DNA from: Candidatus Omnitrophota bacterium | Lineage (GTDB): Bacteria > Omnitrophota > Gorgyraeia > Zapsychrales > JANLHA01 | Assembly (NCBI GenBank): GCA_029560465.1 | Contig: JAKQKX010000082.1 | Location: forward strand, 4,947 to 68,946 | Direction of reading: 5' to 3' | Length of the DNA stretch: 64,000 nucleotides | Shown: piece after piece, positions 3,549 to 21,339 of the stretch | How the letters are laid out: each line of letters starts with the position of its first letter | Numbering within the stretch: position 1 is the first letter of the stretch | Translations under genes and position numbers: made by a program | The notes under the pieces: generated by a model | Seen by the model: the letters and a program-made list of their open reading frames with translations, nothing else | What the model was told of the DNA's origin: nothing | Databases searched by the model: none

Positions 3549-4236
3549 TTGATTTTCCTTCCTCTTTTAATGTCTTGAATAAATACTCGGCATGATCACG
3601 GCCTCTCTGCGGAAAATGGTAGAGGTCCAAATAAAGCTGGAGATTCGAAACAACATTGTATCCTTTGATCACTTGGGTATTGAAAAATGTGGCGCTTTTA
3701 TAATACGGGTTTATTAAATAAAAATTACCGCCCGTCTTTAATTCCTTCAGATCAAGCACCTGCCGCAAGTCCAATGAAGCGCTTTTGAAATTCTTTACCG
3801 GCAGGTAACAATATATTGTCTGCGTGTTCACGTAGCTGGTAATGAGATTGGCCCCGGTATGAAGCGCCAGGGCGTATTGATTGGGCTCTTTCTTCCCTGC
3901 AAAATATTCCTTTAGCCGGGGAAGAATATCCTCTCGGGTTGAGTAATAAAGATGGGCCTCGTTAAGCTCAAACTTATAGACTTTGAGCCACTCCTCAAGA
4001 AGCTCTTCTTTGTTTTGCAATATGCTATGCGCGAGCCTGCCAGAACGGACTCCTCCGACAAACCCCTTGGCGCGAAGTTCTGATAGCACTTTTGCCGCGC
4101 GCGCGCGGCCCACGCCAAATTCTTTCTCGAAATCCCTAGCGACCCATTTCCTATCGGGTTGAGATAGCATGGCGCGAATGATTATGTTCGCCTTATCTCC
4201 TAAAAGTATTTTCATCGTAGTAACTCCTTCGTACAA
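3541..4236 (-). CDS. AbiEi-like winged-helix regulator (putative antitoxin/regulator of the NTase operon)
   Basis: 231 aa. The N-terminal segment ARDFEKEFGVGRARAAKVLSELRAKGFV looks wHTH-like. It is the first gene of the operon and sits downstream of the repeat-rich promoter. Confidence 0.5.
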   Translation of the reverse strand: MYEGVTTMKILLGDKANIIIRAMLSQPDRKWVARDFEKEFGVGRARAAKVLSELRAKGFVGGVRSGRLAHSILQNKEELLEEWLKVYKFELNEAHLYYSTREDILPRLKEYFAGKKEPNQYALALHTGANLITSYVNTQTIYCYLPVKNFKSASLDLRQVLDLKELKTGGNFYLINPYYKSATFFNTQVIKGYNVVSNLQLYLDLYHFPQRGRDHAEYLFKTLKEEGKSIA

Positions 4237-4272: not shown

Positions 4273-4332
4273 AAATGTCCACTTTTCCTAAATGTCCACT
4301 ATTTAGTGGACATTTCCAATTAGTGGACATTT
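4273..4332. promoter_or_regulatory. Four-copy 11-bp operator array (AAATGTCCACT x2 direct, then AGTGGACATTT x2 inverted) upstream of the wHTH gene
   Basis: The four copies are exact, at 4273-4283, 4290-4300, 4305-4315 and 4322-4332. They lie 37-97 bp upstream of the start codon at 4236. Confidence 0.6.
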
Positions 4333-4562
4333 TACCATGATGCACCTGAGAGTCAAGAGAAATATCTGATGCAGGTCAGTAAAATTATGCCCATCCATGT
4401 CCATCAAAATGCCCTTTTTGAGCCCTCCCGGACGCCTGCAGGATACCCCTAAAATCGCCTGTTTTCCGACGCTGGGAGCTTATTTTGGCCGAGGTGACCA
4501 CTTATGCCCAAACCCCAAAAGTGATGGACATGGACATCGATTTTTTTGACCACTATCACTGG

Positions 4563-4672
4563 CTCCTTGCGCCTCGCCCGACCTGCTCCCCCACCCGGCT
4601 TCCAAGGACCCATGGCGCCTGCCAGCATAAAAAATCCCTATGGCCACGCCTCTCCGGCTCTACCATAGGGAC
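4563..4672. repeat. Conserved ~105-bp element, copy A. It carries a hairpin plus T-run that would act as a terminator on the minus strand.
   Basis: I aligned 4563-4672 to 11452-11554 by eye. Shared blocks are CTCCTGCGCCTCGCCCGACC, CCGGCTTCCAAGGACCC and AGCATAAAAAATCCCTATG...CCATAGGGA. The hairpin TCCCTATGG/CCATAGGGA is followed by T6 on the minus strand. Confidence 0.6.
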
Positions 4673-4947
4673 TTGAGTTGCTAAAGCGAGCTGATCCTTA
4701 CAACGCCCCGATTACCGCCTCCGCCAAGCGCGTCATCGCATTACTATAAATCTGCCACTGGCCAGCCGAAGGTGCGCAAAAGGATACGTAGCTTCTTCGG
4801 ACTTTTTTCTGTATTTTCTGCTCTGTTTCCGCTTGTTTTATCCATTTTAGCCCTTCGTCATAGCAAAGCTTCCACGGCCGGCTAGGCCCTTACCTTTAAA
4901 ATTTATGAGTGAAATACGGAATGACCAAAATATACAACTAGTTAAAT

Positions 4948-5832
4948 CTATTGTTTTATTCTGCCTAATTTTTGCATAATTAAATCCCCAAGTTGGTTCG
5001 GGCTCTTAAATTGTAAATCCACATAACAAATTGTCGGACGTAATCCGGGGAGTTCAGTCTTGTCAAAGCGCGCGGGCAAGATATACTCCCCTTTTTCTTC
5101 TAATTCTAAGGCTTTGGCTAAGGCACTTCCTCGCTCATGGCTCGGCCAAATCTTTTCCTTATAATGCTTGGAAATAAACATAACGCAATATCGAGCGTCG
5201 CCTCTGAATACTTTGTCTAAATGCTCAACCAAATCTTTTCCCCAGAGAGTGGCTTCTTCATACTTATCATAGAAGAAACGAATATTTTTTTTCTTTAAAT
5301 AGGCGGCAACTTTCTCGACATAATCCCTATCTTCTCCTGCGAATGAAAGCGCCACTTCATAGGCATTTTCACCCGGCATATTTTCTTTGTTCTCGCCGAT
5401 TCTTTTTGCCTTGTATATGCCTCTGCCAGATATCTGGGAATCTATATCAAGCCTATATCCATCCGGCTCCAAGTATTTGTTTAGCTCATCAACAACTTGT
5501 TTTACCTCACTCGCATCACGCTCTCGCAAGACAACAGGATGGACTACCTGTTCAATAAATTTTAAGAAGATAGTTTCGGGACATTCAAATAGTTTTAAAT
5601 AATTGGATAAGAGAAAATCTTCATCCCAGTCACTATTATTAATCATGTGTTGCCAGATGTCGCCTTCTGCATTTTCAAATCTGCCATCGGTGGAAGGCAT
5701 TGAGGACAAATCCCATACCCTTTTCAGGAAACCGACAAGGTCTAATTTACCGTAAAAAGGTTTACCTCTTACAAGTAGATAATCAATAATATCTCGTCGG
5801 GTTAATTCTGTAATAATCATTTCAAAAATCAT
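4948..5832 (-). CDS. TIR-domain protein with an unrecognised ~150-aa N-terminal domain
   Basis: The C-terminal half reads EVALSFAGEDRDYVEKVAAYLKKKNIRFFYD...CVMFISKHYKEKIWPSHE. This is the bacterial TIR pattern (SFAGEDR, an FxSxxY box, and a conserved Glu). Confidence 0.7.
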   Translation of the reverse strand: MIFEMIITELTRRDIIDYLLVRGKPFYGKLDLVGFLKRVWDLSSMPSTDGRFENAEGDIWQHMINNSDWDEDFLLSNYLKLFECPETIFLKFIEQVVHPVVLRERDASEVKQVVDELNKYLEPDGYRLDIDSQISGRGIYKAKRIGENKENMPGENAYEVALSFAGEDRDYVEKVAAYLKKKNIRFFYDKYEEATLWGKDLVEHLDKVFRGDARYCVMFISKHYKEKIWPSHERGSALAKALELEEKGEYILPARFDKTELPGLRPTICYVDLQFKSPNQLGDLIMQKLGRIKQ

Positions 5833-5897
5833 TTCTTTAGGCTTTTGTTATTTCAGCCCAATCCTTGCAAATAAGTACCGTCTGATTCAAAACTGTT

Positions 5898-6794
5898 TCA
5901 GTATCTTTTTGCTGTTAGTCTGGCGGGTAGCCATATTTTGTTCAGTAAACCCAGTGTTTTATCTATATCAAAACTTTTCTGCTCATCAATTGTCAGGACA
6001 GGGAACAGCTCATCAGAAAGCCGGGATTTCATTTCCTTTATTTCTTTGTCTTTTCTTCCAAGATTCACCCGGTAATTCTTTAAATCAGTTGAAAAGCCGT
6101 CCTCTTCAAGCTTTCGCTTGAAAAGTGATAGCAATTCCTTGCTTTTAAAATCAAACCCGCTTTTAAGTAAATAGCCCAAATCATAAAAATCCCGCGATGC
6201 AATAGTCTGCCTTGTTGATGCCGCCCGGAGCTTCTCAGCGACAAGCTCATTAATCGAAAGGCACGTTATCTTGCCGGCATCAAACAATTCTTCTTTTGTG
6301 AATGGGTGCAAGAATTTATGGTTGATTTTCCTGGTTGTAAAACTAAGCATAGGATTAAACCGAAGCCCGATTTCAAGCTTGATGGATTCTTTTTTGCCAA
6401 GAACCACTGAATCATAGTCAAGGTAATAGATGTATTGGGTGGATTCGTTATGTCCTGCGCTATCCAGATTCCCGACGCTCATTGCCAGTTTCTGTAATAG
6501 CGGCTGTAATGATTTCTTTATCGGTTCGATTGCTTTTTTTCGAATTGCGCGCGTTGCCTCATCTACAGGCAGTTTTAATGTAAAGTCCAAGTCCTCGCTT
6601 AAGCGGTAATATGAATAATAAACCTTGCTTAGTGCAGTGCCGCCCTTGAATACGAGGTCTGGGCTAAGCTCATTTATTTTTGAAAGAACTATGGTTATGT
6701 AATAATCTTTTTCAAGAAGCCGCAAGGGAAACCCTGTCTGGGCTGATGTCCTTTCAAGAATTTTTAAAAATTCAGATTTATTCTCATGAAGCAT
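5898..6794 (-). CDS. AbiEii/AbiGii-family nucleotidyltransferase toxin (DUF1814)
   Basis: FKGGTALSKVY followed by SEDLDF is the DUF1814 NTase signature. The gene overlaps the upstream AbiEi gene. Confidence 0.75.
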   Translation of the reverse strand: MLHENKSEFLKILERTSAQTGFPLRLLEKDYYITIVLSKINELSPDLVFKGGTALSKVYYSYYRLSEDLDFTLKLPVDEATRAIRKKAIEPIKKSLQPLLQKLAMSVGNLDSAGHNESTQYIYYLDYDSVVLGKKESIKLEIGLRFNPMLSFTTRKINHKFLHPFTKEELFDAGKITCLSINELVAEKLRAASTRQTIASRDFYDLGYLLKSGFDFKSKELLSLFKRKLEEDGFSTDLKNYRVNLGRKDKEIKEMKSRLSDELFPVLTIDEQKSFDIDKTLGLLNKIWLPARLTAKRY

Positions 6795-7593
6795 TTTCTA
6801 TGACCATCCATTTTTTGTTTATACTGCCTTTTCTTGACTGCGAAGGATAAATGTTAATCAGGGATGTCTTTTTGACTGCTTTTAATAGCGGGCTTAACAT
6901 GCCATCACTGACCCTGCATTCTTCAAGGGCAATGCCGATTCTTTTAATGAGTGCTGTATTGGAAGATTTAACCGCGTATTTAATAAGCCTTGCAATATCT
7001 GTCTTTTTTCCCATGACATCGGATTTCAATATCTCAAACGCTTTCTTTAATCCTCCGACTGGCTCGGAAAAATAAAACAGGTCAATCAGTGTTTTTTCCC
7101 TGTCGCTGACAATAACATCAGTGTCTTTTATTTTTATCGTTTCAAAACCATAAAGGCGTTTTGGGGCAATCTTAATCATCTTGAAGCGCATGTTGCTGAC
7201 AACCTTTTCTTTTTGAGTGGAAGTGTTCAGGATATACATTGTCTGGAAAAGCTGGTCAGTAAAGCCGTAGTAGTTGTACATTGTTGAATAGCCGATATAA
7301 TAATTTTTCTTTGGGAAAAAAAGCGGCGGGATTAGGAATTCATTGATGTTGCTCCCGGCAGGGCCTGCTTCCAAAGGTGAATACAAATAGACGCCATTCT
7401 TGATTTTTTTAAGAATGCCTTTTTTGGAAAGACGGTAAAGCGTCTTTGCCCGTATTGACTTGAGATAGCCAAATAACTTGTCAAACTCTTCCTGAGTGAT
7501 TACCGTCACTTTCTCATAGGAGAGCCTTGATATGACTTCCTGCTCTCTCGGATTCAAGTATTGCATTGTATTGTTCTTTATCATTTTGCCCAT
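6784..7593 (-). CDS. AbiEi-family antitoxin / transcriptional regulator
   Basis: 269 aa with an N-terminal wHTH. It is the first gene of the pair and overlaps the AbiEii start by 11 nt. Confidence 0.65.
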   Translation of the reverse strand: MGKMIKNNTMQYLNPREQEVISRLSYEKVTVITQEEFDKLFGYLKSIRAKTLYRLSKKGILKKIKNGVYLYSPLEAGPAGSNINEFLIPPLFFPKKNYYIGYSTMYNYYGFTDQLFQTMYILNTSTQKEKVVSNMRFKMIKIAPKRLYGFETIKIKDTDVIVSDREKTLIDLFYFSEPVGGLKKAFEILKSDVMGKKTDIARLIKYAVKSSNTALIKRIGIALEECRVSDGMLSPLLKAVKKTSLINIYPSQSRKGSINKKWMVIENAS

Positions 7594-7838
7594 AAATGGA
7601 AATGCTAGGAATTTACATACAATATAAATCTTATGGTTTTATTGCTGTTTGTCAATATATTTCAGCATGTTATGCGATAACTCCCCATCTCAGCAATCCG
7701 CTTCAAGACCCCTTCCATAATACGCCTGTAGCGCGCGCATCAATACCCTTTTCGTCACAACTTTTTTTCTGAATAAATTCCGTAAATTCCGGGGACACAC
7801 AACTAAACCTTATTTAGTGTGGGTGAGTAAATTATTCT

Positions 7839-8483
7839 TCAATTATCCGATGTAAGCAATCTTCGGCGATAATCATCCGCCGCGTCCTGCCGGTCACGCC
7901 GGTACTTGTAGACTTCATCACTAATCCTTGACGCCTCGCGTTGCGCATCCATCACAGCACGATGCTGTGCCTGCCATCCGGCGTCTGGCGCCATCATCAT
8001 TTGTTGTTGGCCTTGGGGCTGTTGAGCCTGGTTCTGTTCCTGGTACGGAGTAAACGCGAAAGCAATTAAGATAACTCCAAGAGCCATGACGACAATGGTC
8101 CCGGATGCAACATAAACCGAATTCTTGGGATTCTTGCGGACATAGGCACCCAAAGGCGAAAGCTTTCCCCTCCACGGACGATAGACAGCCGTAGAAAAAC
8201 GATAGGCTTTTTCTTCAAGCGGAGTCAGTCCCACCGGTATCTCATCGCCGGGAAGCGGCGGAGGCGTTGCTTTATCTCCGGGCAAAGGCGGCGGCTGAAT
8301 ACGGCTTTTGAATAATCCCGCCAATTCCTGAATCTCTACGGCCGGTTTCCAATTATTCATTCCCTCGCACCATGCGAGCATTTGGGAAGTAATCAGGCCT
8401 TCCGTAATATTTTTTTCGATGGCCTCCTGGTCAAACGGGCCGATTTTCTGATTGTCCTTGCCAAAATAATAAACTTTGCCCAT
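7839..8483 (-). CDS. DUF4339 (GYF-like) domain membrane protein with PPLPGD repeats
   Basis: KVYYFG..GPF......GLI....LAW.EGM..WKPA matches the DUF4339 pattern. PPPLPGD is repeated and one TM helix is present. I chose the start at MGKVYY because AGGAG lies upstream of it. Confidence 0.5.
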   Translation of the reverse strand: MGKVYYFGKDNQKIGPFDQEAIEKNITEGLITSQMLAWCEGMNNWKPAVEIQELAGLFKSRIQPPPLPGDKATPPPLPGDEIPVGLTPLEEKAYRFSTAVYRPWRGKLSPLGAYVRKNPKNSVYVASGTIVVMALGVILIAFAFTPYQEQNQAQQPQGQQQMMMAPDAGWQAQHRAVMDAQREASRISDEVYKYRRDRQDAADDYRRRLLTSDN

Positions 8484-8755
8484 GTCTTCTTCTCCTTTTT
8501 TGTCGCTTCCTAAAGTTCCAGAGACGCACAACCATACCTTATTTAGCTTGGGTTACGGCGCGCATCCCCCTCATTCAAAAAACACTCCTTGTTTTTTCAC
8601 CGTAGATCATTTGTTTGCCATCTAGTAAACTCCTTAAATAAATCGACTATACGATCCAACCGTCAGCCAAAACTTTTCAAATAAATCTTTTTAATCATAA
8701 TGGGTAATTATCGTTCAAGAAAGTTTTGTAGTATAAAATTTTTGGACTGCATTGA

Positions 8756-10465
8756 TTATCCAATTATTTCTTTAATATAAGGCCCTAAATCCATATCTTT
8801 ATACGAAGTCCCTGCCCGCACAACAGGGTATAAGACTTCCTCGACATCTGTCATGACTTCAAGCAGACAGGGGCCCGAGGATTTCATAAATAAGTCAAGC
8901 CCTTCGGACAACTCGCTACGGGAAGTAATTCTTTTTGAGAATTTGTACTGGCAGTGTTTAGCCAACTCAGAAAAATTCACATCAGATTTTCTTTCAGTGG
9001 CAGAGTGCCTTTTTCCATAGGACACATCTTCAAGATTCCTTACCATGCCATCACTTCGGTTGTTAAGAAGAAGTATTTTAATCGGCAAGTCAAGTGAACC
9101 GATTGTATGCAATTCCCCCATATTCATTCTGAAACTGCCATCCCCATCAATAACGATGACAGTCGCGTCAGGATTTGCGTAATATGCGCCTATCGCGCTC
9201 GGCATCCCAAAACCCATAGTGCCAAAACTTCCGGGTGTAAGAAATGACTTTGGCTTGCTCATCCGCAGATATTGAGCCGCTAAAAGTTGATGATTGCCTA
9301 CGCCTGTTGCAATTATTGTGTTGTTATCTACAAACGTGCTCATAAGGTCGAGCACTTCCGCCTGATGAATCAATTTTCCGTCCCGGCAATAATTCAACGG
9401 CCATGTTTTTTTCAGCTGGACTGCATATTGAATCCAATCATCAATGGCTATTCTTATATTCTTGCGCTTTGCATAATCAGTCAAATCATTAAGAGCACTG
9501 GCGGCATCACCAATAAAAGAAAAATCAGGGTTACGCTCATTTCTTATTTGATGGACTTTCTGGGTATTAATATCTATATAGGCAATTTTAGCTTCAATAG
9601 CAAACCCCACCTTTTCCGCTACACGGTCATCCCAGCGAACGCCAACAGCAAAAAAGAAATCATTTTTCTGGATTATTTTATTAGCGTAAGGCGTTCCAAA
9701 CATGCCTAATAACCCTAAAGAAGATGGCGCGTTTTCGTCAACAACTCCTTTGGCCATTAAGGTATTAACAGAAGGGATATTAAAAAGAGAATTAAATTTG
9801 CGTATGGCATCGCTTCCATCTTTTGAATTAAGGCCTCCGCCTAAATATAATAATGGGCGTTTTGCTTCTGTCAGTAGTTTAAAGAAATGCTCGCACTGTT
9901 TTTCGGAGAAATGCCATTCATTGCTATACACTGTTTTAAACCTATCAAGATTGTTGCCAGCGTATTTGTTAATACTCTGTTGAAGATTGATTGGAATATC
10001 AATAACAACTGGCCCGGGCTTTCCCGATTTTGCCAAGAAATAGGCGTCTTTAATAACGGACTCAATATTGTCGATGCTGTCCACAAGAACAACCTTCTTG
10101 GCAGTAGGCCCGAAGACTGCGGATACGTCAATATGCTGAAATGAGTCAGTCCCAATTTTATGCTCGGGAACCTGCCCGGCGATTACAATCAATGGAATAC
10201 TGTCAGCAAAAGAATCAGCTACAGCAGTTAAAGTGTTGGTAATAGCAGGCCCGGAAGTCACGATAGCGACTCCGACGCTGTCGCTTGCCCGGGAATAACC
10301 GGCGGCGCTAAAAGCAGAAGACTGCTCGTTGGAGTTAACAACAATCTGAATAGAACTTTTCCCCAGCTCATCCATTACCGGAAGTATAGCTGCTCCCGTA
10401 TATCCAAAGATGTGTTTTATCCCGAGGTCTTCCAGGCTTTTAACTAAAATTTCTGCGCCGTTCAT
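8756..10465 (-). CDS. Thiamine-pyrophosphate-dependent enzyme, acetolactate synthase large-subunit-like
   Basis: GAEILVKSLEDLGIKHIFGYTGAAILPVMDEL is a TPP_enzyme_N start. The later region GDGSFRMNMGELHT resembles the TPP-binding GDG..N motif. I chose the start at MNGAEIL because an AAGGAG RBS precedes it. Confidence 0.7.
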   Translation of the reverse strand: MNGAEILVKSLEDLGIKHIFGYTGAAILPVMDELGKSSIQIVVNSNEQSSAFSAAGYSRASDSVGVAIVTSGPAITNTLTAVADSFADSIPLIVIAGQVPEHKIGTDSFQHIDVSAVFGPTAKKVVLVDSIDNIESVIKDAYFLAKSGKPGPVVIDIPINLQQSINKYAGNNLDRFKTVYSNEWHFSEKQCEHFFKLLTEAKRPLLYLGGGLNSKDGSDAIRKFNSLFNIPSVNTLMAKGVVDENAPSSLGLLGMFGTPYANKIIQKNDFFFAVGVRWDDRVAEKVGFAIEAKIAYIDINTQKVHQIRNERNPDFSFIGDAASALNDLTDYAKRKNIRIAIDDWIQYAVQLKKTWPLNYCRDGKLIHQAEVLDLMSTFVDNNTIIATGVGNHQLLAAQYLRMSKPKSFLTPGSFGTMGFGMPSAIGAYYANPDATVIVIDGDGSFRMNMGELHTIGSLDLPIKILLLNNRSDGMVRNLEDVSYGKRHSATERKSDVNFSELAKHCQYKFSKRITSRSELSEGLDLFMKSSGPCLLEVMTDVEEVLYPVVRAGTSYKDMDLGPYIKEIIG

Positions 10466-10537
10466 TGAATGCTCCTTCTTAATGAGTCCATTCGATAATT
10501 TTGATATTTTGTCCAATTTTTTTAATGATGGATTCTT

Positions 10538-10738
10538 TCATGTTTGGGCAAGCAAAACCAATAGGATTTCAAACTCAGATGGGCTCAGATAACCAAGCGT
10601 TGAATGATCCCGTTTACGGTTCTCCCAAAACTTCTCGGATTCATCTTTATCTCCTGTGTGGTCCATTTCATTGCTAAAGGGGCACAATACGTTTATTTTT
10701 GCCTGAGCCTCATCAACCTTACTTAAAATCTTTTTCAT
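10538..10738 (-). pseudogene. IS3-family transposase C-terminal remnant
   Basis: FWENRKRDHSTLGYLSPSEFE matches the extreme C-terminus of IS3 OrfB (rve) proteins (…YN..RRHS.LGYLSP.EFE). The upstream catalytic domain is absent. Confidence 0.6.
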
Positions 10739-10776
10739 ATGACCGCCACCTTACTGGCTTAAGAGTCAAGAAATTG

Positions 10777-11376
10777 CTACGAATTCAATTGTTTAAATAT
10801 TTCACCTATCCAAGCCGGGGCATAACGAATATCGTTTATAAGCTGTTTTTTATCCTCGGCTGATAACTTTTTTTTAAGCGAATTAATAATCTTCTCGTCA
10901 ATATTTCTTTGTTTCATGTAACGGAAAGCCTGAATAACCAAGCCGCTCACACGCCCGGCAGTCGCCATATTCTTTGGTGATGTCTTCTTAAACTTAATTT
11001 GCCAGTTGCCAACTTGAACCGCCCGGGTAGAGCCATTTGTTAATAAAACAATCTTTGCCGGTACTTGATCAGACAACCCCAGCAAGTTGGCCGCGTATGC
11101 TCCTGAAGGCTGAATCTTAAGATTATCTTTTTCAGCAAGCGCGGCGGTAACACGCTCAACGCTCGGCGGCGTTTCTTCAAAATCCGGATGTTTTCGTGGA
11201 TAATCATAAAGTCCACGCGCTAATCTGCGGATATCTCCAGATCGAACCAGTCGGCTCAACGCCTGATCTACAGCGGCACGATTGCCAAGATCAAGAAAAT
11301 GGCTTGGGGCAAATACCCATCCCTTTTTCTTGCCGATAATCCGGCGAAGGATTTTACTCTCAATGGATTCTGTCAT
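10777..11376 (-). CDS. AbiEi_4 / DUF6088-type antitoxin-like protein (orphan)
   Basis: 199 aa with WVFAPSHFLDLG..AVDQALSRLVRSGDIRRLARGLYDYP at the N-terminus, which is the DUF6088 pattern. No cognate NTase lies downstream; an IS remnant sits there instead. Confidence 0.55.
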   Translation of the reverse strand: MTESIESKILRRIIGKKKGWVFAPSHFLDLGNRAAVDQALSRLVRSGDIRRLARGLYDYPRKHPDFEETPPSVERVTAALAEKDNLKIQPSGAYAANLLGLSDQVPAKIVLLTNGSTRAVQVGNWQIKFKKTSPKNMATAGRVSGLVIQAFRYMKQRNIDEKIINSLKKKLSAEDKKQLINDIRYAPAWIGEIFKQLNS

Positions 11377-11451
11377 ATTTATCTCTTTTTATAGTCAGAA
11401 ATAATATATTGCACTTCTGACAGAAAGTAAAGCTGTTTTTAAGCTCCTGCG

Positions 11452-11554
11452 CCTCGCCCGACCCTCACCCCACACCGGCTTCCAAGGACCCGTAGCCATA
11501 TCTAGGAGCATAAAAAATCCCTATGACCGCACGTCTCGATACGACCATAGGGAT
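11452..11554. repeat. Conserved ~105-bp element, copy B, 10 bp downstream of the bla stop on the minus strand
   Basis: Same alignment as copy A. The hairpin ATCCCTATGACC...GGTCATAGGGAT plus T6 reads as a terminator on the minus strand. Confidence 0.6.
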
Positions 11555-11563
11555 GACTGATTA

Positions 11564-12355
11564 TTACAAAAGGTTTTGTGACTTAAAGATATTCTCTATG
11601 ATCGTCCTGGCAGTCTTGCCCGAGGGATTCTCGCCTCCGGCAATATTGCAGGCAAAAACGTAGGTCGTGCCGTCATGCTCCAAGAAGCCCACAAACCAGC
11701 CCAAATTCCATTTCCCGTCAGGCCCTGTGCCGGAGCCGGTTTTGCCGTAAAGCGTTCCTTTGGTGGTCTTCTCTACCCGCATGATATCGCGTAGTAGCAC
11801 AATATTCTTTTCAGAAAACGGAAGCTTGCCATCCAAAAGCTTGTTTAAAAGAGCGACCTGTTCATCCGCGCTGATCTTGATAGATGTGGTTTCAGGGCGC
11901 GGAAGCCAGAAGATATCGATCCCGGCAGAAATATCCTGTGAGCCATAGCTGATCTTTCCAATATACTCCTTCATCCGGGCTTCACCGATCTGCTGTGCTA
12001 AGAGCTGGTATGCGGGGACGGCCGACACCCTAAACGCTTCGCGGAGCGTTAAATCCTGATTCCATCCCTCTATGTCACGCTTCACCCCATCCCATTTATA
12101 CCACGATTCATCAGCGCCCTTTATGAGCCCAAGCTCAAGCCCGATGAGCGTATTGTAGATCTTGAATGTCGAGCACGGCGAAAGACGCCGGGCGCTAAGC
12201 TTCGGATCCGCATTGACAACCTCGCCGTTTGCCCGGTTATAAATCACCAGAGCCGCGTCATACCCCTGCAAAAAAGCTTGATCGATTTCCTGAGCAAAGG
12301 AAACCGGCCCCATAAACAAAAAACAGATGCAAAATACGGTTTTATTTATACGCAT
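11564..12355 (-). CDS. Class D (OXA-type) beta-lactamase
   Basis: An N-terminal signal peptide is followed by the STFK active-site motif, an SAV (SxV) motif, YGKTGSG (KTG), and W..G (WFVGF). Confidence 0.8.
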   Translation of the reverse strand: MRINKTVFCICFLFMGPVSFAQEIDQAFLQGYDAALVIYNRANGEVVNADPKLSARRLSPCSTFKIYNTLIGLELGLIKGADESWYKWDGVKRDIEGWNQDLTLREAFRVSAVPAYQLLAQQIGEARMKEYIGKISYGSQDISAGIDIFWLPRPETTSIKISADEQVALLNKLLDGKLPFSEKNIVLLRDIMRVEKTTKGTLYGKTGSGTGPDGKWNLGWFVGFLEHDGTTYVFACNIAGGENPSGKTARTIIENIFKSQNLL

Positions 12356-12364
12356 AAACCCTCT

Positions 12365-13129
12365 TTACTTTTCCGCTACAACAAGCATCTCAAAATCCCC
12401 TGTCGTCAGCTTGTCGTTCCTTGAGTACGCCCCGAGCTTGGCGCCGAAAATATCGATTTTTTTATACCCCAGTGTCTTTAACAGCCATGTGAGTTCACTT
12501 GGCACATAGTAGCGCTCGTTACAGGTTAATTCCTTTTTTGTCCCCGCATCGTCCTCGAACACGACGGTATTGTGGTCCCGGAACGTCATCAGATCGAAAG
12601 AACAATTTTTACACGCTGAATTGCCTTCTTGGGCCGCGGACTCATAAAATTCTTTGACGGAATGAAAAAGCGGAAATAACCCGTTCAATGTCGTGAATAT
12701 AAACTTGCCCTTATCTTTTAACGCCTTTGTCGCGTTCTTCAATATTTCGTAATTCATCTCATCCGTTTCCATCAAAGAAAAACCGCCCTCACAGAGCATG
12801 ATCGCCAGATCGAATGCGTCTTCAAAAGGAAGGTTGCGTGCGTCATGTTTCTGAAAATCGATTGTCACCCCTGCCTCTTTGGCTTTTTCCTTTGCCCTTG
12901 CAAGCTGTGAGTCGGACAAATCCACGCCAGTCACGTTATTATACCCCCTTTTCGTCAGTTCGAGCGAATGACGGCCGGTGCCGCAACCGATATCGATGAT
13001 CTTTAAGGACTTATCGCGGCCGATTTCAGCTTCAATAAAATCGCATTCGCCCACAGTCCCCTGAACAAAGCATTCCTTATCGTATTTGCGGGCGTAATTC
13101 TCAAATAATGATTCGTACCATTGTTTCAT
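12365..13129 (-). CDS. Class I SAM-dependent methyltransferase
   Basis: DIGCGTGRHS is a SAM-binding motif I. Confidence 0.7.
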   Translation of the reverse strand: MKQWYESLFENYARKYDKECFVQGTVGECDFIEAEIGRDKSLKIIDIGCGTGRHSLELTKRGYNNVTGVDLSDSQLARAKEKAKEAGVTIDFQKHDARNLPFEDAFDLAIMLCEGGFSLMETDEMNYEILKNATKALKDKGKFIFTTLNGLFPLFHSVKEFYESAAQEGNSACKNCSFDLMTFRDHNTVVFEDDAGTKKELTCNERYYVPSELTWLLKTLGYKKIDIFGAKLGAYSRNDKLTTGDFEMLVVAEK

Positions 13130-13400
13130 TTGAATTCCTTTCAGGCTATTAGCCTATGCCTCTATTCGAATATCGCCTCGGCCAAGATTGTCATCGTCTT
13201 GCTGCAATCCTGCCACCGGCCAACCGTAGGTGGATATGTACACGCGTTTTTGTAGTTCGTTATTTTTCCTTAGGTTATGCATCTATATTTTTTATATTTA
13301 TCTCCAAATGGGGATGAATGATTATGGTTTTTGTTAACTTTTAGTCTCCCGCATTGATACTTCCGACCAAAGCCCTGAGCAATATAGGATTTGCATACAA

Positions 13401-14159
13401 TTATTTGAAGGGTAAAAGGAGCATGCCGCCTACATGTTGCCACTTTGCTTTTTTAAATGTTCCGATCCCATATGTTACCGATTTAATATCAGGTCGAGTC
13501 ACAAAACTTTTAAATAAACGATCCCAAAAAGAAAAGATAGTCCCGTAGTTTGAATTTGTTTCACCCCATATTTCCGAATGGTGAATTCGATGCATCCGAG
13601 GCATAACGAAGAAATAATTTAAGAGATTATCCATTTTCTCTGAAAAAGCGATATTACTGTGGTGAAAAAGAATAACTGGCACCATGACCGTGTTATAAAT
13701 AGCCAGGAAAGTAAAATCAAGCCCCAAAAGGCCCAATACAATCAAATTCAGACAATACGAAAAGATTATTTCAAGGGGATGAAACCGTACGGCTGTGGTG
13801 GAATCCATATTGGGGTCAGTGTGATGCATTCGATGGAAACGCCAAAGAAAATAAACTTCATGGTTGAGACGATGCCAGAAGTACATCCACAAATCGAACA
13901 GAATAATGCCGATCAGAATTTTAAAAACATTATGATTCATGGATGATAAAATACCAGCAAATTCCTTGCTGAACCATTTTAGCCATAAAGCAAAATAGGT
14001 GATACCGGCCAGGATAATCATTCGATTGATTGCGGCTATCCCTAAATTGTTCAGGGAGTGTTTGATCCTATATCCGGGATTTTTAAAAAAAGGGAAAAGA
14101 TATTCCAGGGTAAAAATAAGGATGAACGAAATTAAAGCGATTGTTGAATCACGGCTCAT
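13401..14159 (-). CDS. Fatty acid hydroxylase / sterol desaturase superfamily membrane protein
   Basis: Histidine boxes HRLNH, HRMHH and HRIHH are embedded in a polytopic membrane protein. Confidence 0.7.
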   Translation of the reverse strand: MSRDSTIALISFILIFTLEYLFPFFKNPGYRIKHSLNNLGIAAINRMIILAGITYFALWLKWFSKEFAGILSSMNHNVFKILIGIILFDLWMYFWHRLNHEVYFLWRFHRMHHTDPNMDSTTAVRFHPLEIIFSYCLNLIVLGLLGLDFTFLAIYNTVMVPVILFHHSNIAFSEKMDNLLNYFFVMPRMHRIHHSEIWGETNSNYGTIFSFWDRLFKSFVTRPDIKSVTYGIGTFKKAKWQHVGGMLLLPFK

Positions 14160-14916
14160 TTAAACTCCAATCGTAAAACGTATATTTGATTCTCCACCTG
14201 GCCGCATCTTGGGAAAGGGGCGTCCCTTCTTCTTCAGACAGATAGCGGGCAATCCAACGTAAAACCGCTTCAGGCTTTCTTCCAAAATCTTCCTTAAACC
14301 ATCCGAAAATGGGCGAAATGTTTGCTATTTTAGTTTCAAAATTAAATGAATTCTTCTTCTTTTGAGCAAGAAATATTCTGCCTTGACTATCGAGCTGCTG
14401 ATCCAGTTTCTCGGCTTCATAGGCTTCATTTCTTAGGGGCGGGCAGCCTTTAGCAGCGCAGACAATGGCAAAGTGAATGCGGGGGTCTTTAAAAATGGGC
14501 CGCATAATTTTATGTTCAATATCGCTTAAAGAGGTTTTCTTGCCGTTAATGGTAACGATTTTTTTATCCCAAACGGTTGATTTAAGGACCATGCCCATCG
14601 CTAACCCGCCGGAGTGTAATTCATTGATGCTTTTTAGCGGATAATTATCACAAATGATCTTTAGCGTCCAGGCATTGTAAGCATTAATCCAAAAAGCAAG
14701 CTTCTCCTTCTCTGACTTAAGTGCATCGGGATTAACGTTAACAAGTTGGTCCAGATAATGCGCAAAATGAATATTTTTACATAAGGACTTATAGTCAACG
14801 GTTCCTTCAACGACGTGTTCATTGAGCGCGGCCGTAAAGAGATGGTGATTACTTTTGGCAAAAGATTGGCTTGTCGACAGAATAAGAAAAATCATTAAAC
14901 CAATTAATCGCTTCAT
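14149..14916 (-). CDS. DUF547 domain protein (secreted)
   Basis: A signal peptide is present. FWINAYNA and HFAIVCAAKGCPPL match the DUF547 pattern. Confidence 0.6.
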   Translation of the reverse strand: MKRLIGLMIFLILSTSQSFAKSNHHLFTAALNEHVVEGTVDYKSLCKNIHFAHYLDQLVNVNPDALKSEKEKLAFWINAYNAWTLKIICDNYPLKSINELHSGGLAMGMVLKSTVWDKKIVTINGKKTSLSDIEHKIMRPIFKDPRIHFAIVCAAKGCPPLRNEAYEAEKLDQQLDSQGRIFLAQKKKNSFNFETKIANISPIFGWFKEDFGRKPEAVLRWIARYLSEEEGTPLSQDAARWRIKYTFYDWSLNEP

Positions 14917-20050: not shown

Positions 20051-20126
20051 TGATCCGGTTTCTGGGGAATATTATACTCCTTTGCTGATTATTTCAACAA
20101 GGGGGTATAGACTTATTCGTGATTCT

Positions 20127-20606
20127 TTAGGACATATCTGTTAATAGGGATTCTAAATCCTCCTCGTGTTCAACTTCATCTTTTAGTATTTCTAAAATAA
20201 CATGGTAGGTGATAGGGTCTTTATCCTTCACAAACTCAAGTAGTTTTTTATATGTTTCAATCGCACATTGTTCGCCGTTAATATTTTGTTTTAACAACGC
20301 TTTTGTGCTTGGGTCGCTGGGCTCCGCGTACCCGCAATTCGTTTCTTTTAATAGATCTTCTGGCTTTAATAGCGGAGTTCCACCCAATGTTATAATCCTT
20401 TCCGCAAGCATCTGAGCGTGTTTCAATTCTTCGTTGGCGTGTTCTTCCAGCTCTCCAGCCACAATCCCCCGCATCCTGCCAGAGGCGACTTTAGCCCCCA
20501 CCCAATACTGATAATAGGCGAGCCACTCATCAGCATAAGCTTTGTTGAGCACGGTCACTAATTCTTCAACATTCACACCTACAATCGCTTTCCCTTTTGT
20601 GCCCAT
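20127..20606 (-). CDS. Ferritin-like diiron protein (bacterioferritin/Dps/rubrerythrin superfamily)
   Basis: Helical, with the motif ELEEHANEELKHAQ and a later EVEHEEDLE segment, which are ferritin-like metal ligands. A GGAGG RBS precedes MGTKGK. Confidence 0.55.
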   Translation of the reverse strand: MGTKGKAIVGVNVEELVTVLNKAYADEWLAYYQYWVGAKVASGRMRGIVAGELEEHANEELKHAQMLAERIITLGGTPLLKPEDLLKETNCGYAEPSDPSTKALLKQNINGEQCAIETYKKLLEFVKDKDPITYHVILEILKDEVEHEEDLESLLTDMS

Positions 20607-20646
20607 AATCTTTTCTCCTTCCACTGGGATCAATATTATTGATACC

Positions 20647-21339
20647 CTATTTTAATTTAAGTGTTTTAAAACAGATAAACCAATCCAGACATTTAATCCC
20701 TTCTTTTTGAGCGCCTTCAACCCGCTCTTTTGCGGTTCCGCAGCTTCCCGGAGGAGGGACAATCACATCTTCCCCTGGCTGCCAATCGGCGGGAGTAGCG
20801 ACATTATGGGTATCCACCGTCTGCATGGATATGAGCAATCGTTTGATTTCCTGAAAATTACGGCCGGTTGATAATGGATAATACATAAGCGCCCTTACTT
20901 TAGCCTTTGGATCAATAAAGAACACGGCTCTTACAGCACTCACGTTGCTCTCGCAGGGTTGAATCATACCAAACTTCTTCGCGACATCCATTGTGAGATC
21001 CGCAATCACCGGGAAATTTACTTCAACATTTTTCATGCCTTTGTATTCAATTTTTTCTTTAATAGTCCTCAGCCACGCGATATGACTGTAATGACTGTCT
21101 ATGGAAAGGCCAATCAGTTTACAATTCAACGCCGCAAACTCTTTTTCCATAGAAGCAAATGTTATGAATTCAGTCGTACATACGGGTGTAAAATCAGCCG
21201 GATGGCTGAATAAAATAACCCACTTGCCCTCATAGTCTTCAGGAAATTTAATATGCCCTTGTGTCGTATCTGCCTCAAATGACGGGGCAACATCCCCTAT
21301 CACCGGCATGTGTGTTTTCTCGCAGCAATTTTGTTCCAT
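20647..21339 (-). CDS. Peroxiredoxin (1-Cys/Prx6-like)
   Basis: FTPVCTTE is the peroxidatic-Cys motif. An AAGGAGG RBS is present. Confidence 0.8.
   Translation of the reverse strand: MEQNCCEKTHMPVIGDVAPSFEADTTQGHIKFPEDYEGKWVILFSHPADFTPVCTTEFITFASMEKEFAALNCKLIGLSIDSHYSHIAWLRTIKEKIEYKGMKNVEVNFPVIADLTMDVAKKFGMIQPCESNVSAVRAVFFIDPKAKVRALMYYPLSTGRNFQEIKRLLISMQTVDTHNVATPADWQPGEDVIVPPPGSCGTAKERVEGAQKEGIKCLDWFICFKTLKLK

Follow-up and report, generated by a model that had tools for sequence, protein, structure and literature searches.

The locus and its two 105-bp repeats

The stretch of DNA analysed here, referred to as the window, is 64 kb long. It contains two direct repeats of ~105 bp each, 6.9 kb apart: copy A at positions 4563-4672 and copy B at 11446-11556 of the + strand. 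The genes neighbouring both copies all lie on the minus strand, and on that strand each copy reads as a hairpin, a run of six Ts, a short variable spacer and a GC-rich stretch. Between the copies (4884-11444, minus strand) Pfam, PADLOC and NCBIfam searches identified genes for a TIR/AbiJ protein, AbiEii, AbiEi, a GYF protein, an acetolactate-synthase-like protein and an orphan DUF6088 AbiEi; neither a recombinase nor a transposase was found among them. The DUF6088 AbiEi antitoxin gene (10777-11376, PADLOC E=5e-73) has no AbiEii partner in the window. It is followed by the gene similar to the acetolactate synthase large subunit (8756-10516; 500 bits against a cut-off of 538 bits), an odd passenger for a defence island. 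On the + strand, GC skew stays negative over the first ~37 kb and is flat to slightly positive from there on; GC content increases from ~40% to ~50% (positions 1-37000 versus 37000-64000), with genes still on the minus strand.

A class-D beta-lactamase-like (or BlaR1-sensor-like) gene, here called bla, occupies 11564-12355 next to copy B; its NCBIfam score of 221 bits is below the 250-bit cut-off. The same cargo recurs between att junction and terminator (both described below) in loci L031, L041, L046 (two copies) and L048 of our comparison set, in which all sequences are MAG or metagenome contigs.

The existence of two copies had been predicted from the sequence of the window, and it was confirmed at the predicted positions. 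The copies are ~84% identical overall, with ungapped matching blocks of 49 nt (84%) and 31 nt (87%), and the 17-mer CCGGCTTCCAAGGACCC is found exactly at 4595 and 11475 only (0.14 occurrences expected by chance). An nhmmer profile search of both strands did not find a third copy in the 64 kb. The gene contexts given in the original prediction are also correct: the stem of copy B ends 9-10 nt beyond the bla stop codon (11564-11566), and copy A lies 275 nt past the TIR/AbiJ gene.

The hairpins as predicted intrinsic terminators

Hairpin A (4635-4672, minus strand, T-run at 4629-4634) has a stem of 13+3 bp and a predicted folding energy of -56 kcal/mol for its 131-nt context; it is situated 26 nt past the stop codon (4698-4700) of a remnant of a serine recombinase gene. 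Hairpin B (11517-11554, minus strand, or 11511-11554 with the T-run), which follows the bla gene, folds into a 16-bp stem and then T6, and the terminator scan likewise reported 16 pairs followed by TTTTT at 11554-11517. Folding thus agrees with the predicted hairpin and T6 of each copy, and the scan with those of copy B. A hairpin with a T-run is present in 30 out of 34 related loci, and in nearly all of the 34 it is located 2-37 nt upstream of the conserved module described in the next section; loci L019 and L029 are without a hairpin.

The original prediction had also stated that stem differences between the copies preserve pairing, and had proposed a covariance analysis. Pairing is preserved between copies A and B as well as across the hairpin family. 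In an alignment of hairpins from 22 loci, 85.7% of cells are paired versus 34-43% in slid controls, eight pairs are altered on both sides, and none of 500 shuffles reached the observed score. Many G-U pairs in this alignment are valid only on minus-sense RNA. The RNA models therefore show a GC-containing stem-loop and U-run shortly past a co-oriented stop codon, with covarying stems, as in intrinsic terminators at large; in terms of these models, the hairpin with its T-run is an ordinary Rho-independent terminator of the upstream gene, carried by the minus-strand RNA.

Alignments of the family revealed that the type of hairpin sequence tracks the upstream gene. The type seen after bla genes occurs in window copy B, L031, L046 (both copies) and L048. 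The type associated with the recombinase occurs in window copy A, L041, L017 and L025: in L025 it is 3′ of an intact recombinase gene, and in L041 and L017 it is 3′ of att-type junctions. The hairpins are all related in sequence (CCCTATGG...CCATAGGG), since each moves along with its gene within elements that are themselves related.

A conserved non-coding module downstream of the terminators

The GC-rich tail makes up the initial ~50 nt of a longer module of ~230 nt that is conserved and non-coding; we named this module ELEM. In copy A the tail (4563-4611, minus strand) starts with the edge GGGTCC at 4611-4606, as defined by alignments, and continues into a full-length ELEM (4386-4613, core 4522-4613; nhmmer E=3.6e-61) with an A-tract and with ATGTCCA repeats (4525-4537) that recur in inverted orientation at ~4388-4410. 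In copy B a truncated ELEM (11445-11494, minus strand) matches only positions 2-51 of the nhmmer model. Thus, conservation of copy A extends left past 4563 to ~4386, or to 4273 if a cluster of repeats is counted, whereas that of copy B ends abruptly at 11445. The predicted conservation beyond the hairpin is therefore real and needs an explanation separate from the terminator, although the boundary originally placed at 4563 was wrong.

An exact two-block pattern was searched in 185,579 species genomes and in metagenomes. It retrieved 12 true loci in the species genomes, with one copy each, and 21 metagenome loci; a copy count outside the window had been proposed with the original prediction, and its outcome disposes of the possibility that only two copies exist with no conservation elsewhere. 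The 12 loci come mostly from Omnitrophota MAGs, and the few labelled otherwise are mainly short contigs. The pattern-found loci share with copy A the ~180 nt of conservation beyond the tail, to window position 4386. In total, ELEM is single-copy in >35 related Omnitrophota loci, with one full copy per locus, and its GGGTCC 5′ edge is sharp in every context, including intact elements. Contigs L003, L005, L010 and L002 carry ELEM in bins labelled Planctomycetia, Patescibacteria and Elusimicrobiota. Mis-binning is likely, since three of these contigs are only 2.6-4.2 kb long; transfer across phyla is an alternative to be kept in mind.

The pattern fixes bases at 23 positions, so part of the apparent invariance of ELEM arises because the search required those bases. 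Loci L041, L044, L046 and L048 were reached independently, via RadC neighbours. In these loci GGAAGCCGG varies and the rest of the core holds, with a core divergence of 3-18% versus 20-33% at four-fold degenerate sites of RadC. Between L044 and L046 the divergence is 3% in the core versus 47% in the middle of ELEM. The long-range inverted repeat of ELEM is 96% complementary across 26 sequences and covaries at two positions, in one clade. No clear repeat was found in the tail, and a sigma-70 scan revealed no promoter-like site within 4386-4613.

A small protein encoded by the tail or by ELEM was considered and rejected: no reading frame stays open in every sequence, start and stop codons are not constant, and there are single-base indels in the ELEM of L003, L014, L016 and L023. 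The ORFs called on ELEM are 37-102 aa long, and 85 ORF clusters derived from ELEM were found among 5.8 billion proteins.

A large serine recombinase and att-type junctions at miaB

Most loci contain a further conserved piece of ~100 nt, U, upstream of the hairpin. Its nature becomes apparent in locus L025, where the order is a large serine recombinase (LSR) gene ending inside U, then hairpin, ELEM and an AbiE module. The L025 recombinase has 581 aa and Resolvase, Recombinase and Zn_ribbon_recom domains; among LSR homologues with a source name, nearly all are labelled Omnitrophota. An LSR of this domain composition was found at one end of the element in L025 and L053-L058, while the window holds only a 61-codon remnant: the last 61 codons and stop of the gene, at 4698-4883 on the minus strand (codons 4701-4883), adjoining hairpin A. 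The translation of 4883-4701 is 64% identical to residues 521-581 of the L025 LSR (tblastn E=1e-19).

Two copies of U are present in the window, both on the minus strand. One, in the region 4750-4790 (U profile E=4.9e-24), lies inside the LSR remnant and contains a putative attP-type core at ~4750-4790 with the crossover near 4766/4765. The other, U′ (13164-13254, with the junction at ~13224; U profile E=4.8e-19), is located upstream of a methyltransferase gene and the bla gene; it is an attL-type junction that joins a miaB-like 5′ half (..KRVYISTYG) to a recombinase 3′-end half, the latter having a weak tblastn match to LSR residues 554-577. In copies of U other than the one within 4883-4701, only the last ~26 residues of the LSR match, with a miaB-like start on the other side. 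A copy of U was thus classified as attL-type if its left half is miaB-like, as at 13164-13254, and as attP-type if that half is recombinase sequence, as at ~4750-4790.

The connection to miaB comes from other loci. In L053-L057 the LSR gene directly abuts a MiaB gene (UPF0004/Radical_SAM), and attR reads ..KSPKKLRVLLRTFG/CQMNEYDSE.. (frame LRTFG/CQMN; a slash marks the junction); therefore, the overlapping frame of the LSR 3′ end supplies MiaB with a new N-terminus. The recombinase at attR stops early, after ..CAPSDAR. In L015 the first 32 nt of U are common to the miaB gene of L002. On the strength of this match and the attR readings, U was taken to be an att junction. The core common to attB (miaB), attP (LSR 3′ end), attL and attR is ..TTGCGCACCTTCGG/..; it is located in U and is absent from the hairpin and tail of the 105-bp repeats. 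Junctions of attL type were seen in many loci and attR in L053-L057; no single contig showed the two ends of an intact element together. An intact LSR, an attR and miaB were not found in the window. Pfam searches with frameshift-corrected U peptides as the MiaB N-terminus gave no match, because the peptides are too short; the link of the U frame to the MiaB N-terminus was made via the attR sequences and the L002 gene. ELEM as a fragment of a MiaB pseudogene was also considered and discarded, as neither the window nor the loci showed similarity to MiaB by tblastn.

These sequences suggest the following course of integration. The attP would be located ~80 nt upstream of the stop codon of the LSR gene; in the integrated state, the last ~26 codons of the LSR, the terminator and ELEM would be found at attL, while the LSR body would abut MiaB at attR, with the element supplying MiaB with its new N-terminus. 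With attP inside the 3′ end of the gene, integration would thus swap the last ~26 codons of the LSR.

Mini-ORFs ending in ..T(F/Y)GWP(V/L)xxL and a stop codon overlap the recombinase 3′ end in another frame, at 4744-4845 (minus strand, 33 codons, resembling the replacement MiaB N-terminus) and 13164-13300 of the window and at 6340-6440 of L031. In intact elements this frame runs on into MiaB (..RTFG/CQMN..) as the replacement N-terminus. In L002 (oriented) a 107-codon remnant of the recombinase C-terminus (3822-4124) with a third, partial att-type sequence (4035-4084) sits in the 5-kb stretch between U and the intact miaB, which suggests nested or serial insertions there too. The recombinase of L058 is not beside miaB and its junction reads ..CACCTTCGG/ATGACGATTGG, a sequence suggestive of a different target or partner site.

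Two probable decayed elements in tandem in the window

The att-type junctions at ~4766 and ~13224 together with the LSR remnant therefore point to two decayed LSR elements in tandem. We consider it probable that the 105-bp element is a terminator plus the edge of ELEM, originating from an LSR-mobilised family of Omnitrophota elements that insert at the 5′ end of miaB, and that two tandem decayed members are present here. On the minus strand the outer element would run from U′ through the methyltransferase gene, bla, terminator B, ELEM-B and the AbiE and TIR genes to the LSR remnant. The inner one would follow with U at ~4766, terminator A, ELEM-A, AbiEi_2/NTase genes, a metallophosphatase gene, a gene for a 175-aa protein, radC and hsdM. 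Each would be built on the same plan (att junction, optional cargo, terminator, ELEM, AbiE-type module), and U at ~4766 would be the attP-type junction expected between tandem elements. Derivation of the two copies from two related elements, and not from local duplication, would explain why they are only 84% identical and why copy B is nearer to other lineages than to copy A.

A single unit is found in relatives L031, L041 and L048. Locus L046 carries two stacked units independently, and its outer ELEM has a different internal deletion. The deletion junction of ELEM-B in the window falls in GGAGC (11447-11443), where ELEM-B passes directly into the promoter region of the gene for DUF6088 AbiEi. 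In L048 and L041 GGAGC occurs at the end of the tail and again just upstream of the DUF6088 promoter (...GGGAGCTTAAAAATAGCTT...). ELEM-B may thus have lost everything past nt 50 by a microhomology deletion of ~340 bp between two GGAGC pentamers. In both cases of stacking (window and L046) the spare ELEM copy is without the core and the copy beside the TA slot is intact. In L018 (oriented, ~39-140) ~130 nt are missing from the interior of ELEM, between two direct TTTTTGACCAT repeats, another sign of its decay by repeat-mediated deletion.

Several features of the layout call for comment. A simple element model does not predict that a methyltransferase gene and bla should lie between U′ and hairpin B. 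In relatives, ~14 kb past radC were covered without reaching the far end of the inner element, which either is heavily decayed or does not include radC and the type I R-M genes. ELEM directly follows the att junction in loci of the window type and is upstream of the xis-int operon in intact elements, from which we infer a deletion or rearrangement connecting the two layouts. The duplication breaks short-read assemblies: L035 and L037-L039, independent metagenome contigs of this genome or of one nearly identical to it, all terminate at the repeated ELEM/hairpin or close by (L035 matches window 11380-14485 with 99.9% identity).

Alternative explanations

The original prediction had offered attachment sites as one of its candidates, and att-type junctions are indeed involved, at ~4750-4790 and 13164-13254; the 105-bp repeats themselves are not such sites. 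An explanation in which the two copies are attL and attR of one 6.9-kb island, with a crossover within the tail, would account for direct repeats bracketing defence-type cargo and for relatives such as L031 that have one copy where the window has two; even the mosaic pattern, with hairpin B resembling the L031 hairpin and tail A the L031 tail, fits a crossover near GGGTCCTTGGAAGCCGG. However, there is no recombinase between the copies, which are only 84% identical; the inner end of copy B is a GGAGC microhomology deletion of a once-complete ELEM; L046 repeats the stacking with a different deletion; and the junctions linked to the recombinase are found elsewhere, 30-130 nt outside hairpin A and, past bla and the methyltransferase gene, ~1.6 kb outside hairpin B. 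We thus regard a single island flanked by these repeats as unlikely. Far less probable still is a dispersed family of short repeats (REP, MITE or transposon-end hairpins) landing after genes by chance. Such families also consist of short, hairpin-bearing sequences, and two copies 6.9 kb apart might have been taken for one, as the original prediction did in naming a REP/MITE-like family and a transposon-end subterminal hairpin. Neither reading survived: each of the 12 species genomes has one exact-pattern copy, the profile search gave no further copy in the window or in any locus, no transposase is nearby, and phage, plasmid and viral collections contain no ELEM match. Terminal inverted repeats and target duplications are also missing: GGGTCC... 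at one end does not recur in inverted form as ...CCATAGGGA at the other, and no duplication is seen in the flanks.

Two other explanations concern ELEM itself. It could be a gene for a structured or base-pairing ncRNA, the hairpin being its own terminator or a part of it; a sharp and constant 5′ edge, conservation exceeding that of synonymous sites, a long-range helix with two covarying pairs and a plus-sense fold with z=-2.0 would all be in line with this. Nonetheless, ELEM has no Rfam match at any threshold (the whole window has none at the gathering score, and matches with E<=10 near the element are chance-level eukaryotic miRNAs and snoRNAs only). Folding of the 281-column consensus gave a weak structure (-20 kcal/mol) in which almost all predicted pairs are invariant, and the minus-sense fold has z=-0.5. 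Moreover, no promoter-like site exists inside ELEM or at a fixed distance upstream, where sequences vary by context; the covarying positions belong to hexamer repeats that recur in the adjacent operator cluster; and L019 and L029 have no hairpin at all. An ncRNA gene is therefore improbable in our estimate. We give similarly little credit to the view that ELEM is functionless and is conserved by frequent regional exchange, hitch-hiking or gene conversion at a hypervariable locus. Mosaic histories such as that of L044 and L046, and flanking slots that are often swapped, agree with it; it is countered by the presence of ELEM with the same edge in intact elements, next to different neighbours and at ~75% overall identity, by the preservation of the repeat architecture, and by the loss of the core from both stacked spare copies while the copy beside the TA slot is intact. 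An LSR-mobilised element family with ELEM as one of its modules remains our preferred reading.

A number of specific candidates were also rejected. Integron attC sites are not supported, as neither copy has RYYYAAC/GTTRRRY boxes and there is no tyrosine integrase in 1-16.4 kb or in the annotated loci. The sequence ATGTCCAC resembles high-GC DnaA boxes; a chromosomal oriC was dismissed, there being no switch of GC skew or gene orientation at ELEM. The dnaA gene was not among ten ORFs tested between 31 and 51 kb, and L042/L043, which have dnaA near radC, have no ELEM. In L042/L043, radC and a type I R-M system are followed ~10 kb further on by dnaA (20073-20708), so that the radC region of these Omnitrophota without ELEM is close to the origin. 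Motifs for dif/Xer, parS, sigma-54, ECF and sigma-70 were looked for in the core by inspection and none fit. Among the titles and abstracts listed by literature searches on Omnitrophota defence islands and on DUF6088/AbiEi, none mentions this element.

Possible role of ELEM

In intact elements ELEM was detected with nhmmer E-values from 4e-21 to 8e-16 and with the same GGGTCC edge, between a primase-helicase gene and the xis-int operon. In L053 it begins 145 nt 3′ of the primase-helicase gene, and in L053-L056 it is directly upstream of an operon consisting of a small ORF, an HTH_17 gene and the recombinase gene. Repeats of TGTC(A/C)A type, in both orientations, surround the A-tract and continue into palindromic sets at the downstream promoter; seven of the 12 ATGTCCA sites of the window are within 263 bp (4275-4537). 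Locus L058, with a primase of a different, Toprim type, has a different repeat array at the position of ELEM: six TGTAGTT/AACTACA repeats and a T-tract at 4628-4760. Clustered short repeats and an A-tract near a rep/primase gene are what is seen in iteron-type origins. We infer from this arrangement of sequences that ELEM is probably a protein-binding DNA array, either a replication origin or an operator of the excision-integration operon.

Downstream of ELEM-A four ATGTCCAC half-sites, two forward and two reverse, form an inverted-repeat cluster (4273-4332, minus strand) overlapping a sigma-70-like promoter (4356-4329; TTGACT-16-TAAAAT with TG) of the AbiEi_2/NTP_transf_8 (NTase) operon. The cluster at 4273-4356 is probably an antitoxin operator; it persists in relatives with other downstream modules. 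The ELEM repeats as auxiliary operators for the downstream AbiEi antitoxin were considered and rejected, as whether a locus has TGTCCA or TGTCAA repeats bears no relation, across loci, to its antitoxin family or to the type of downstream regulator.

More speculatively, ELEM and the att-type junction might form a minimal cis kit by which remnants lacking a recombinase are moved in trans by intact sisters, and the placement of attP might make the C-terminus of the recombinase differ between the free and integrated states. We offer this as a conceivable though doubtful extension. If it is true, the kit lets defence-laden remnants be excised, replicated and moved in trans, and the change of C-terminus is a built-in switch of directionality or stability, analogous to integration-dependent immunity in mycobacteriophages; attP within the element's own gene together with trans-mobilisable remnants would then be a new regulatory twist on serine-recombinase elements.

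The 105-bp repeat is thus an informative scar left by mobile elements rather than a repeat family of a new kind. What looks like a conserved tail behind a terminator can be the edge of a mobile-element module, and reading this one led to a family of serine-recombinase integrative elements that had not been described before, in the Omnitrophota, a phylum for which almost all knowledge comes from metagenomes. The family carries TA, defence and class-D beta-lactamase-like genes and occupies the 5′ end of miaB; the att junction and ELEM provide short specific markers for finding its members and stacked remnants in MAGs.

Comparison with known systems

With REP/MITE repeats and integron attC sites the 105-bp element has in common that it is short, bears a hairpin and follows genes in a cassette-like region; in contrast to them, ELEM is single-copy and comes without GTTRRRY/RYYYAAC boxes, IntI, terminal inverted repeats or target duplications.

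Iteron-type origins are located 3′ of rep or primase genes in SaPI/PICI satellites and plasmids, and multi-site operators control phage switches. ELEM resembles both in being ~230-340 bp of non-coding DNA with clustered short repeats in both orientations and an A/T tract, in its location between replication genes and the excision-integration operon, and in that a different primase type goes with a different repeat (L058). The likeness is one of sequence layout, and the cognate replication genes are absent from the window. To our knowledge, the GC-rich 50-nt edge of ELEM has no counterpart.

Tandem accretion of integrative elements and of non-autonomous derivatives is known from CIMEs and from tandem islands at tRNA genes. 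The window is similar in having two related elements head to tail with an internal attP-like junction, derivatives without a recombinase and internal deletions; its elements differ in using a serine recombinase and in targeting miaB.

A further parallel is offered by integrative elements and prophages that depend on a large serine recombinase for their mobility, for example phiC31, Bxb1, TP901-1, SCCmec and Tn4451-type elements. Shared features are a recombinase of ~560-580 aa with Resolvase, Recombinase and Zn-ribbon domains, a short att core beside the recombinase gene, a specific host gene as the presumed target, and a cargo of TA, defence and resistance genes. In the Omnitrophota family, unlike in these, attP appears to be inside the 3′ end of the recombinase gene itself, so that recombination, as read from the sequences, would swap the last ~26 codons; the overlapping frame would give miaB a new N-terminus, and the hosts are Omnitrophota.
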